NCBI RefSeq assembly: GCF_024298765.1
Contig: NZ_CP101210.1
Origin: Escherichia coli
Lineage (GTDB): Bacteria > Pseudomonadota > Gammaproteobacteria > Enterobacterales > Enterobacteriaceae
Length of the DNA stretch: 64,000 nt
Reading direction: 5' to 3' (one strand)
This document shows, in pieces, positions 4,860-7,102 of this stretch. The stretch's first letter is position 1, and each line of letters opens with the position of its first letter. The notes under the pieces were generated by a model that had not been told where the DNA came from, ran no database searches, and was given only the letters and a program-made list of their open reading frames with translations. A program made the position numbers and the translations under genes.

Positions 4860-4945
4860 CTGGCTGGTGTTATTGAAAATATTTTCAGATATATATTACC
4901 CGGACGATGGTTAAGATTGATTTATTTAATTTTGGGGAGAAAATT

Positions 4946-5413
4946 ATGAGACTGTCAAATATTTTCCTGGCTGTAGTTTTAACTGTGACCGTATCTGTAG
5001 CACACGCTATTCCAAATATGTGGGGCAGTGGCTTCACGATGGGCGTTACTGAGTTCAGTATTGATAACGGTAAGTGGGGTATCAATATCAGTTGCACAGG
5101 TAACCCCAACGAAAACAATGTGCTGGCGCACACAATCTATATTTACAAAGGAGATAAGGTGGTCGCAAACTCGGAAGAAAAAAATATTAGTTTCGTTATT
5201 GACGGTGAAGAATTCTGGGGTGTGGTTCCTGACGGTACCCGTATGAACGATAACGCCTGGGTTAGCTTTGTAAAAGCAATAAGCACTGCAACCGGGTTTG
5301 AACTGTACATAAACGAGAAGAAAGTTGCGACGTTTAACCCGTCTGCCAAAAACGTTAAGAAAGTGATGGATAATAACTTTATCCAGTCGTGCTGGAATAC
5401 CTGGTACGAATAA
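4946..5413 (+). CDS. Small secreted protein of unknown function (N-terminal signal peptide MRLSNIFLAVVLTVTVSVAHA)
   Basis: ORF with RBS GGGGAGA 7 bp upstream; signal-peptide-like N-terminus; AT-rich context. Confidence 0.55.
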   Translation: MRLSNIFLAVVLTVTVSVAHAIPNMWGSGFTMGVTEFSIDNGKWGINISCTGNPNENNVLAHTIYIYKGDKVVANSEEKNISFVIDGEEFWGVVPDGTRMNDNAWVSFVKAISTATGFELYINEKKVATFNPSAKNVKKVMDNNFIQSCWNTWYE

Positions 5414-5468
5414 CGATTACAGGAGAGGGGGACTTCCTGGCCCCCGATTTATTTAAGGAGTGCATGAA

Positions 5469-6098
5469 ATGAAACATTTTTTAATTCTGGTTATCGGTTT
5501 ACTCATTTCCATCACCGCGACTGCCGAATCGCTGGGTCAGTTTGAAGAGGATATCACCGGTTTTCCGCAGGGAGTATGGTTTTACAAAGAAAAAGCAGGC
5601 TGGAAAAACGAAACCGGGTATAAAAAAGAATATTTAAACAGTCTCCTCTATAAGGCCGAAGAAATTGCGAATTATCCGGGTAACAGATACACGATTTACC
5701 GTAGTAAAAACAGCAGCATAATTTTCGTCGCTGACAACGAAACCAGGACTTTCTACTTGCTAAACAACAAGGACGCCTTATGGTCTGATATTCAGATCGG
5801 GTATTGGGCTGAGAACAAAAACTCGTGTCACTACGTCTTTGTCGATACTCAATACCTTGCGCAAAGTAACGAACTTGACGAGTTCTTTCGAACCGGGGTG
5901 CTCGATACTCATGGTGTTGGTGAATCGGATCGTAAAGTAAAAGAGATCAGACAAAAACATAAGACTCATGTCTTACTCCGCCTGCCTGCGCAATGTGTGA
6001 ATGATGCGATCCTCAGCAGAATGAATAAGTCCGAACGTCGTGATCTAATGAAAGCGCAAGAAGATTTCAAACAATATCTTGCCAGAATGGAGCTGTAA
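5469..6098 (+). CDS. Small secreted protein of unknown function (signal peptide MKHFLILVIGLLISITATA)
   Basis: ORF with RBS AAGGAG upstream; signal peptide; AT-rich context. Confidence 0.55.
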   Translation: MKHFLILVIGLLISITATAESLGQFEEDITGFPQGVWFYKEKAGWKNETGYKKEYLNSLLYKAEEIANYPGNRYTIYRSKNSSIIFVADNETRTFYLLNNKDALWSDIQIGYWAENKNSCHYVFVDTQYLAQSNELDEFFRTGVLDTHGVGESDRKVKEIRQKHKTHVLLRLPAQCVNDAILSRMNKSERRDLMKAQEDFKQYLARMEL

Positions 6099-6128
6099 GT
6101 ATTCAACCTTTTCGCAACTGTGAGTGAA

Positions 6129-6377
6129 ATGAAAATCAAAACTATACTTTATACTATCATTCTTTTCTGTGAAATTGGCATCACCGACACTTATGCACTC
6201 GGTGGTTCGGATATCCGTCACTGCGAACCAACTGAAGAATCTGTAATTATTAACCCGGACGAGTCACCGGTGTTAATATATAGCTTCAGTAAACACGAAG
6301 TGTATAAACTGATGCAGGGGGATACCTGCACTGGGCTAGTTATTAGCGATAAAAAGCCAAAGCCTGTCCACGTTTAA
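6129..6377 (+). CDS. Small protein with hydrophobic N-terminus, unknown function
   Basis: ORF 6120..6377; start uncertain (GTG 6120 or ATG 6129). Confidence 0.4.
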   Translation: MKIKTILYTIILFCEIGITDTYALGGSDIRHCEPTEESVIINPDESPVLIYSFSKHEVYKLMQGDTCTGLVISDKKPKPVHV

Positions 6378-6532
6378 TGGACATCGCTTGCGAACCGCCA
6401 GAAGTCATGTCTGCCAGCATTCATCTACTGGCCGCGGATAATTATACGACCATGGATTTCTGCCATAACGCCGAATTAATCGGTCGTATTCCGTAAGCCG
6501 TGGTATCGAATAATTTAAGAAGGATTTTTATC

Positions 6533-6985
6533 ATGAAACACCGACACATTTTAACGTTCTTTGTTGCTTTCCTGTTCATGACTATCGTACCTGATAGCGA
6601 CGCCGCATTAGTAAAGCGTCCTGAGAAAGGTCGTGCACCGTTCCCGGAATATGTGGAGTTCGCGCAAAACCGTAACCAGTTCCCATGTAATGCACGTTTA
6701 CGCTTTAAAGGTCTCTGCTTTGTTGAACAAACTGACCCCTGGGGTGCAGCAAGCGTTGTCCGAATCCCTTTCAATTCCCCCAATGGTAAAGGCAGACTTA
6801 ACGCTTATGGCGTGGTTGTTCATGCAATAATGGTTGGTGATGTTGTCGTTGGTGGCAGCTATTCAACTGGCAAGAATGTTACCTGGAATTTCGATACGTT
6901 TTATAGGGAGGGTAAACGTCGCGGTAAGGTGACCTTTTATGTTGATGGTAAATACTGGCACTATCGCGACTATCCACTCGAATAA
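6533..6985 (+). CDS. Small secreted protein of unknown function (signal peptide MKHRHILTFFVAFLFMTIVPDSDA)
   Basis: ORF with RBS AAGAAGGA upstream; signal peptide. Confidence 0.55.
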   Translation: MKHRHILTFFVAFLFMTIVPDSDAALVKRPEKGRAPFPEYVEFAQNRNQFPCNARLRFKGLCFVEQTDPWGAASVVRIPFNSPNGKGRLNAYGVVVHAIMVGDVVVGGSYSTGKNVTWNFDTFYREGKRRGKVTFYVDGKYWHYRDYPLE

Positions 6986-7102
6986 TCCATAACGAACAAA
7001 ACTATTAAAGGAATTATGCGTCTTATCTGCGCATTATTAAAATCAATAGTAAATTCGCTCCTGCCATTATGGCTGGGGCTTTTTATTTTCAGGTGAAAAC
7101 AC

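Follow-up and report, generated by a model that had tools for sequence, protein, structure and literature searches.

A stretch of 64,000 nt from Escherichia coli (RefSeq assembly GCF_024298765.1, contig NZ_CP101210.1), referred to here as the window, carries on its + strand a low-GC variable cargo cassette of about 2.2 kb (4900–7065, 43% GC), which holds four small open reading frames (ORFs), named O1 to O4, all predicted to code for exported proteins. What the analysis establishes is the structure of the genes and the families to which they are linked, the limits and distribution of the cassette, purifying selection and a phage-like composition. The explanation that best accommodates them, advanced tentatively, is that the cassette constitutes phage-derived cargo lodged in a slot between an operon coding for dynamin-family, RdcB-family and patatin-like proteins and the DUF905-DUF932-antirestriction-RadC-CbtA backbone of an integrative island. 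According to this explanation, O1, O3 and O4 would be diverged copies of neighbouring genes from a hypervariable cluster of signal-peptide genes in jumbo phages resembling SPN3US, and O2 would be a member of a rare family whose other representatives occur in islands of this kind.

A discrete cassette of phage-like composition

The cluster had been noticed earlier from the sequence alone as an AT-rich group of small secreted proteins, probably acquired separately by horizontal transfer, and that observation proved to be real and more than chance, with two corrections. In fact, the compositional shift was evident in windowed calculations, in which the GC content was 0.41–0.46 over about 4800–7200 against 0.52–0.58 in both flanks, and the stretch 4900–7000 presented 43.0% GC versus 51.4% in the whole window, with individual values of 42.5% for O1, 42.2% for O2, 43.2% for O3 and 45.9% for O4. 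The cassette thus has the AT-richness relative to the host (43.0% versus 51.4% in the window) that is expected of xenogeneic DNA silenced by H-NS.

The 2.1-kb cluster was found in full, at about 100% identity, in 202 of the 5426 complete E. coli genomes (3.7%), its left junction (patatin/ORF1) being recovered in 202 genomes and its right junction (ORF4/DUF905/DUF932) in 199. The hosts were diverse and included uropathogenic (UPEC), avian pathogenic (APEC) and Nissle-type strains, and in some genomes the cassette was interrupted by insertion sequence (IS) elements. In E. coli it always lay 3′ of the dynamin/RdcB/patatin operon (202/202), but that operon was also found without it in about 2240 genomes. 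A synteny survey had been suggested in order to see whether the four genes travel together; they do, and in E. coli always in this one setting. The proposed separate acquisition was upheld by these data: the cassette is a discrete insert, carried by 202 of the 2442 genomes with the operon, and both its GC content and its gene order are phage-like.

Homology to other E. coli islands ended at about 4900 (at 4941–4986 in some lineages) and came back at about 7065–7155 on the + strand, where the match to thousands of other islands returned at query positions 466–555, and these junctions coincided with the GC trough. Just before the left boundary, a backbone segment of 41 nt (4860–4900, + strand) was kept whichever cassette came next: about 2000 genomes matched query bases 1–41 only, with 97.6–100% identity among the matches listed. 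This segment contains TTGAAA and a TATATATTA stretch and may therefore represent a shared promoter or a recombination joint of the slot. A consensus promoter scan revealed no convincing + strand promoter upstream of O1 and did not call the 4860–4900 segment.

An imperfect inverted repeat of 20 nt, 75% complementary, was observed just inside the cassette ends (4911–4930 and 7033–7052). It is likely a product of chance in AT-rich DNA, and the search for flanking repeats at the cassette revealed nothing beyond it. At the right end, the region 7003–7087, which overlaps a hairpin followed by a T-run, produced only sub-threshold Rfam matches (anti-hemB, 23 bits; Spot_42, 21 bits) and most likely corresponds to a plain terminator-like structure.

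Relationship with a gene cluster of SPN3US-like jumbo phages

Relatives of three of the four genes were found side by side in a set of contigs of up to 117 kb (L007–L010), in which a YfjT-like gene of 151 amino acids (aa) was followed by an O1-like (156 aa), an O3-like (128 aa) and an O4-like gene (150 aa), and then by a gene for a 129-aa signal-peptide protein. The order O1, O3, O4 was the same in the cassette and in this cluster, of which the L008 copy was used for comparison. The O1 protein was 77% identical to its L008 counterpart, with proportions of nonsynonymous (pN) and synonymous (pS) differences of 0.115 and 0.72, respectively; the repaired O3 was 64% identical (pN 0.20, pS 0.69) and O4 was 57% identical (pN 0.29, pS 0.76). 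Synonymous sites were therefore saturated while amino-acid change was limited, with a ratio of nonsynonymous to synonymous rates (dN/dS) far below 1, which identifies the O1, O3 and O4 families as real genes kept under purifying selection since an old split. At the DNA level, the cassette was 76 and 66% identical to the L007–L010-type loci, whose GC content was 43–46%.

These contigs share their gene order with L006, which corresponds to NZ_CP134650.1, a 222-kb sequence deposited as the Enterobacter ludwigii 'plasmid unnamed1' (also handled as L018). It codes for an S80 prohead protease 81% identical to the protease of SPN3US, Asesino and vB_EcoM_EC001, as well as for a 2377-aa SLT-domain protein and a thymidylate synthase (thyA), most of the other genes being hypothetical. 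Judged from its sequence, NZ_CP134650.1 is an SPN3US-like jumbo phage and not a plasmid. A 160-aa ORF at 8406–8888 of L006 was absent from the gene table displayed. In SPN3US itself, three further signal-peptide genes come after the O3 homologue; they belong to PHROGs 17072, 8968 and 5248, families whose function is unknown.

The composition of O1 bears on the direction of the exchange. The K-12 genes yfjT and ykfB have 51–53% GC, whereas O1 has 42.5%, like the phage copies, and this difference favours a transfer of the O1 allele from phage to island. A literature search by keyword and accession (SPN3US signal peptides, protein accessions and guessed locus tags of strain CFT073) returned nothing relevant, and no earlier description of the jumbo-phage link of the cassette was seen in it.

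O1 as a member of the YfjT/YkfB family

O1 (4946–5413, + strand) codes for a predicted exported protein of 155 aa with a signal peptide at residues 1–21, and its sequence places it in the YfjT/YkfB family (PF27224, phrog_3429). By BLASTP, it shared 35% identity over 142–147 residues with K-12 YfjT (E 1e-30) and YkfB (E 1e-28); it matched phrog_3429 with an E value of 2.6e-12, and PF27224 (PF27224.1, YfjT) was precomputed for near-identical proteins of the O1 cluster. Moreover, Cys50 and Cys149 were invariant in an alignment of six sequences, every one of which had a signal peptide. A Pfam-A scan of O1 gave no match even at E≤10, presumably because the library version used did not contain PF27224.

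A word-indexed search of 5.8 billion proteins retrieved for O1 near-identical E. coli copies and the phage-lineage copy, in this case at 76% identity. The AlphaFold2 (AF2) model of the protein had a mean predicted local distance difference test (pLDDT) score of 67.9, with about 65–90 in the core. A relationship with immunoglobulin V domains was considered and rejected, since the PDB profile matches were sub-significant (best E 0.027) and restricted to an 'ISCTG' motif.

O3 is a broken gene

The third ORF of the cluster belongs to the phrog_9424 family, and it corresponds to part of a gene. The 5′ fragment (6129–6377, + strand) consists of 82 codons, comprises the N-terminal two thirds and carries the signal peptide, with TYA|L as the predicted cleavage site, whereas the C-terminal third is encoded by a 3′ fragment of 39 codons in the –1 frame (6377–6496, + strand), the two overlapping at TAATG. 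When the pieces were joined, residues 1–120 aligned end to end with single jumbo-phage proteins of 128–136 aa. Similarly, the window DNA differed by a single 1-nt gap from L008, L006 and L011, and MAFFT placed this gap in GATAAAAAG at 6350–6357. The deletion thus falls within the interval 6350–6371 (+ strand) and most simply in the A5 run of that motif, and adding one A gives back a product of 122 aa that is colinear with those of the phages. The profile of phrog_9424 matched the 5′ ORF only at positions 1–79 of 128, the remainder lying in the –1 frame and no single ORF covering the full length of the family. For this reason O3, as read from the alignments, is a homologous pseudogene of the phrog_9424 family spanning 6129–6496 rather than an intact member.

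Homologues of O3 were found in 39 SPN3US-like or Erwinia jumbo phages, with identities of 37% for SPN3US ACQ60_gp086, 45% for STsAS and about 61–64% for the lineage of L006 (E. ludwigii, 222 kb) and L008. Regarding E. coli, the Prokaryotic Genome Annotation Pipeline (PGAP) called no O3 gene in CFT073, the 82-aa piece and the 39-aa piece each appear as a hypothetical protein of their own on at least 1000 contigs, and among the matches listed the O3 cluster had no longer member. In L011, a variant locus 73% identical to the cassette, one reading frame crosses the broken position. Since the homologues are in a single frame, L011 reads through and the pieces are separate on at least 1000 contigs, the broken state is derived and apparently fixed in E. 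coli.

It was also considered that O3 might be alive, some full-length 122-aa protein being produced by –1 ribosomal frameshifting at GAT AAA AAG (6350–6358). The missing base maps to an A5-G run that holds the slippery AAA AAG, the –1 frame produces exact colinearity with the phage proteins and the break is kept in all copies. However, the heptamer is U AAA AAG and not A AAA AAG, inspection by eye found no Shine-Dalgarno-like stimulator upstream, the homologues are single ORFs without an A-run at this position, and homopolymer runs are known hot spots for indels. Frameshifting is accordingly very improbable, and the run at 6350–6358 is probably a mere indel hot spot.

The original prediction had described four + strand genes that matched no recognisable family, and had named fragments of a larger degraded gene as the finding that would overturn it. 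ORFs were indeed found on the + strand at 4946–5413, 5469–6098, 6129–6377 and 6533–6985, but the third is the 5′ piece of a broken gene, and degradation applies to this one of the four, because 6129–6377 and 6377–6496 align as one phage protein with 1 nt missing. As for the families, the statement holds for O2 and O4, but not for O1 (YfjT/YkfB) or O3 (phrog_9424).

O2 and O4 belong to very rare families

O2 (5469–6098, + strand) codes for a predicted exported protein of 209 aa with a signal peptide at residues 1–19 and conserved Cys120 and Cys176, in which the N-terminal part is predicted to be beta-rich and the C-terminal part helical. O4 (6533–6985, + strand) codes for a predicted exported protein of 150 aa, mostly beta in prediction, with a signal peptide at residues 1–24 and conserved Cys52 and Cys62. 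Neither had any match in Pfam, NCBIfam, PADLOC or PHROG, and the word-indexed search retrieved only E. coli copies with at least 87% identity. The AF2 model of the two proteins fused by a linker (O2-linker-O4) had a mean pLDDT of 64.8.

The mature O2 and O4 sequences were joined as the query of an exhaustive HMMER scan, which covered 1.84 billion cluster representatives and recovered the few relatives of both families. For O2, these were P0009, with 48% identity, and P0014, P0017, P0018 and P0019, with 27–37% identity, the latter four sharing motifs with O2 and having signal peptides. For O4, there was essentially one real relative, P0010 (57% identity), whose gene is located directly after the O3-like gene in the jumbo-phage-like contigs. 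P0005, P0007 and P0016 corresponded to frameshifted assemblies and were not counted as relatives, and P0015 was discarded as a low-complexity false match. Likewise, a match of 25 residues between O2 and an NHL repeat in the PDB profile searches (E 7e-4) was treated as a coincidence of motif.

In contrast to the other three genes, O2 was absent from the phage loci, and its relatives were found in CP4-type islands, placed after a GTPase gene and a putative WYL-type regulator and beside a YfjT-family gene or a YfjS+IrmA pair. Blocks of this kind were observed in islands of other bacteria, namely in L012 (8001–9532), L019 (6001–7103) and L021 (1926–3500), in which the O2-family gene comes directly after the putative WYL-type regulator and precedes either YfjS/YafY+IrmA genes or a YfjT-family gene, forming a recurring block of exported proteins.

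Export signals and conserved cysteine pairs

Signal peptides were called by an in-house heuristic script that considers a K/R-containing n-region, a hydrophobic core, small residues at –3/–1 and the presence of a lipobox. According to it, the N-termini of O1–O4 present K/R residues followed by a hydrophobic core (Kyte-Doolittle values of 2.4–3.5 over 10 residues) and, besides the O3 site given above, predicted cleavage sites at AHA|I (O1), ATA|E (O2) and SDA|A (O4). All four ORFs therefore have the features of type-I Sec signal peptides, as had been proposed for at least three of them, and signal peptides were also found in all homologues, while the same scan detected no lipobox in any of O1–O4. 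The decent ribosome-binding sites announced by the original prediction, in the form of purine-rich Shine-Dalgarno-like motifs, were found for O1, O2 and O4, that of O3 being weak. The start codons of O1, O2 and O4 agreed with the PGAP annotation of CFT073 and with the N-termini of the homologues.

Moreover, alignments revealed one conserved cysteine pair per family in all four families. Taken together with the Sec signal peptides, these pairs suggest that the products of O1–O4 are very probably exported and should be disulfide-bonded in the periplasm, from which they may possibly be released.

Other cargo in the same slot

The slot receives other genes as well. In the UTI89-type cassette (L016, 13490–14593), present in 1878 of the 5426 complete genomes, it contains two signal-peptide proteins of 160 and 136 aa, which are 71 and 76% identical, respectively, to the products of two adjacent genes of the L006 cluster. 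The DNA was 75.5% identical to this cluster over 961 bp, and its GC content was 45.0% versus 53–55% in the flanks. Genomes with the UTI89-type and with the window-type cassette overlap, as in the case of Nissle 1917. The PGAP call of 225 aa for the first UTI89-type gene probably starts too early, since the phage homologue begins with MKRLHTLM. An Ivy-like nature of the 160-aa protein was not substantiated, the Pfam match, its only one, having an i-E of 0.23 and the PDB search giving none.

In the O157 strain 180-PT54, the slot harbours an O1-like remnant of 57 aa, a DUF4339 membrane protein and a 137-aa signal-peptide protein that is 39% identical to SPN3US gp084. The 57-aa ORF (L017, 7831–8004) shares 48% identity with residues 100–155 of O1, that is, with its C-terminal third, and O1-type genes therefore once existed in other island lineages and have since been partly deleted. 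L011, a 1.9-kb assembly (Logan SRR10800393) with 73% DNA identity to the cassette, has O1, O2 and O3 followed directly by DUF905, without O4; all of its genes contain frame breaks, to be attributed perhaps to errors of assembly, perhaps to decay. Since window-, UTI89- and O157-type cargo all match genes of the phage cluster, the comparisons indicate that the variable phage cluster and the variable slot of the islands are supplied from one common pool of genes.

Proteins that occupy one and the same position in the phage cluster were observed to begin identically even where their mature parts are unrelated. For example, MKRLHTLM begins both P0010 and the 160-aa protein of UTI89 and L006, while O4 begins with MKHRHILT; the signal-peptide codons compared were those at 6533–6604 of the window, 8001–8072 of L008, about 13688–13760 of L016 and 8406–8480 of L006. 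Such identical starts on unrelated mature proteins suggest that cassettes are replaced through a breakpoint located within the signal-peptide codons.

Possible function and alternative explanations

In kind, the cassette is ordinary accessory cargo, and what the cargo does can be argued from analogy. It is known that lytic phages exclude superinfection by means of small periplasmic or membrane proteins, such as T4 Sp, Imm and T5 Llp, and loci shaped by an arms race typically keep their position while their gene content is hypervariable. Along these lines, the cassette proteins would act at the envelope like superinfection-exclusion factors, with T4 Sp as the model, so as to block the cell-wall hydrolase of related phages that arrive, or the entry of their DNA, or to give the envelope some other protection; for the island they would be captured defence cargo. 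A function of this type at the envelope is possible, although doubtful. A broader proposal, namely that SPN3US-like phages and CP4-44-type islands repeatedly exchange a periplasmic array acting as an envelope-level phage-exclusion system, which the phages would use against competing jumbo phages and which E. coli would capture as defence, is rather unlikely; in such exchanges, cassettes may be swapped by means of breakpoints inside the signal-peptide codons.

Several results weigh against phage-derived defence cargo. No homology of O1–O4 to known exclusion, immunity or defence proteins was found, PADLOC-DB 2.0 gave no match for them at E≤0.1, NCBIfam gave none, and all PHROG matches were to families of 'unknown function'. 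The tblastn search of O1, O2 and O4 against the 50,697 phage genomes of INPHARED had no match and the scan of IMG/VR with O4 had none; since none was found in INPHARED, the phage link of O1 and O4 rests on one uncultivated lineage (L006–L010). The direction and date of the transfer are not established, because the synonymous sites are saturated, and the export call rests on a heuristic rather than on SignalP or experiment. Finally, every E. coli copy seen has one of its four genes broken, and remnants occur in other islands, both of which fit decay. Profile and structural comparisons were negative: PDB profile searches gave no matches for O3 and O4, hhalign found no relationship among the four families or with IrmA, and a BFVD search with the AF2 models retrieved nothing.

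Decay is at the centre of the first alternative, in which the cassette would be hitchhiker DNA from an old phage recombination, degenerating as passive cargo with no current role in E. coli. It would accommodate the frameshift of O3 in all copies and its omission by PGAP in CFT073, the IS elements that interrupt the cassette in some genomes, the O157 slot that retains just the 57-aa O1-like remnant, the lack of O4 and the several frame breaks of L011, and the presence of the cassette in only 3.7% of genomes. However, about 200 genomes from diverse hosts carry O1, O2 and O4 in intact form, with good starts and ribosome-binding sites, and the pN/pS values of O1, O3 and O4 point to strong long-term purifying selection, so that passive decay is an unlikely account. 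The near-100% identity of the E. coli cassette copies has no power for or against it.

The original prediction had mentioned immunity proteins among the roles open to small secreted proteins in islands, and a compatible alternative is that the products are orphan immunity or inhibitor proteins directed against envelope weapons other than phages, such as peptidoglycan hydrolase effectors of the type VI secretion system (T6SS), colicins or host lysozymes, in the manner of Ivy, PliC and MliC. Small, periplasmic and disulfide-bonded proteins, as these are predicted to be, encoded in a mobile and variable array would suit such a role, and the weak Ivy match of the UTI89-type protein points the same way. 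On the other hand, that protein had no PDB sequence match to Ivy, O1, O2 and O4 had no Pfam or NCBIfam match to immunity or lysozyme-inhibitor families, no cognate effector gene lies nearby, and the relatives occur in lytic jumbo phages, to which T6SS immunity would be of no obvious use. This alternative is quite unlikely.

Host-directed secreted factors of the IrmA type are improbable. The O2-family genes do adjoin YfjS+IrmA genes in related islands and the cassette is carried by UPEC, APEC and Nissle-type strains, and IrmA is itself a signal-peptide protein found in the supernatant and encoded by agn43-yeeR-irmA modules in CFT073 islands (PMC4807369). Nevertheless, the cassette proteins have no sequence or profile similarity to IrmA (no Pfam match; hhalign probability <1%), and the relatives closest to them belong to lytic jumbo phages that infect Enterobacter, Salmonella and Erwinia, among them phages of a plant pathogen, which argues for a target in the bacterial envelope rather than in an animal. 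Lastly, although the adjacency on the same strand and the invariable position 3′ of the operon (202/202) might suggest accessory subunits co-transcribed and coupled with the dynamin/RdcB/patatin system, this is hardly credible, since about 2240 genomes have the operon but not the cassette, unrelated cassettes can occupy the slot after it, a terminator separates the two, their GC content and origin differ, and the phage relatives of the cassette have no such operon.

If an envelope function of the cassette is confirmed, the slot that follows the patatin gene would represent a common but unannotated hot spot in which E. coli islands store exported proteins taken from giant phages; the operon that defines it is present in about 45% of the complete genomes. 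Such a function would also provide a handle on the role of the many small signal-peptide proteins of jumbo phages, as well as on the K-12 'y-ome' genes yfjT and ykfB of cryptic prophages. The practical gain consists of a corrected annotation (O1 as a YfjT-family gene, O3 as a pseudogene at 6129–6496 and NZ_CP134650.1 as a jumbo phage) and of a list of testable candidates.

Genomic setting of the slot

Comparison with the CFT073 copy revealed that the first 12 kb or so of the window correspond to the end of a CP4-44-type integrative island, and the large ORFs beyond about 12 kb read as housekeeping-like by their N-terminal sequences. It is well known that CP4-type elements carry defence cargo, such as RnlAB and AbpAB in K-12 CP4-57. 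Envelope and secreted proteins, namely Ag43, YeeR and IrmA, are found in the same island family (PMC4807369).

The operon upstream of the cassette codes, on the + strand, for a 798-aa dynamin-family protein (452–2848), which is CrfC/RdcA-like and had a CrfC-like family as its best NCBIfam match, a 301-aa RdcB-family protein (2845–3750) and a 356-aa patatin-like phospholipase (3747–4817). It was present, with at least 80% coverage, in 2442 of the 5426 complete genomes (about 45%), and it is intact in the window and frameshifted in CFT073. PADLOC gave weak matches only (LeoBC, E 1.6e-4; phospholipase effector, E 1.6e-4), and the operon may be an uncharacterised membrane-acting or defence module. 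The terminator that had been placed at its end was recognised as a terminator-like hairpin followed by a T-run (4837–4860, + strand; hairpin at 4837–4853), with a 7-bp stem of five GC pairs followed by TTTTTCC, and it is part of the island backbone, outside the cassette.

On the other side, also outside the cassette, the backbone resumes with a DUF905 gene (7103–7336, + strand; 52.6% GC), named after the CFT073 annotation, and continues with DUF932, an antirestriction gene, a RadC/JAB gene, DUF987 and a YeeU/CbtA toxin-antitoxin pair.

Comparison with known systems

IrmA, a small protein that is released into the medium and mimics or binds host immune molecules, and the YfjS/YafY proteins (PF18673 and PF20494, respectively) resemble the cassette products in being small signal-peptide cargo placed between the GTPase/regulator and antirestriction-RadC-toxin ends of CP4-type islands (PMC4807369). 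They differ in that no similarity of sequence, profile or fold to them was found and no lipobox exists in O1–O4; moreover, the localisation of IrmA was shown experimentally and its structure was solved, whereas O1–O4 are known here from sequence and predictions. In fact, neither similarity to the IrmA family (PF18673) nor an FNIII-like fold was detected for O1–O4, and as regards YfjS/YafY (PF20494), BLASTP gave no match for O4 and only noise for O2. None of the proteins could be assigned to the lysozyme inhibitors (Ivy, PF08816; PliC/MliC).

Phage exclusion factors, such as T4 Sp and Imm, T5 Llp and Cor, are small phage-encoded proteins, exported or associated with the membrane, that differ between related phages and also occur as cargo of prophages and islands. 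The cassette resembles them in the kind of gene and in genomic behaviour only, with no homology.

A closer relationship links O1 to YfjT and YkfB, proteins of unknown function encoded in the K-12 elements CP4-57 and CP4-6, with which it shares the length of 155 aa, the signal peptide and the invariant cysteine pair. The setting is of the same kind, since ykfF, the gene that comes after ykfB in CP4-6, is a DUF905 gene, and DUF905 also comes after the cassette here. In contrast, O1 represents a phage-like allele, with 77% identity to a gene of the jumbo-phage lineage, and is not preceded by a YfjS/YafY lipoprotein gene, and this likeness covers one of the four ORFs only.

The remaining comparison is with the SPN3US cluster (ACQ60_gp086-gp083; PHROGs 9424, 17072, 8968 and 5248). 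The cassette differs from the SPN3US-like cluster in its location in a bacterial island, in the extra island-type gene O2 and in the inactivation of O3, and relatives of O1 and O4 were not found in any of the cultured phage genomes of INPHARED. Nevertheless, O3 falls in the family of gp086, with 37–45% identity to the Seoulvirus proteins, and both the cluster and the cassette are low in GC and code for small proteins predicted to be exported and to carry a cysteine pair.

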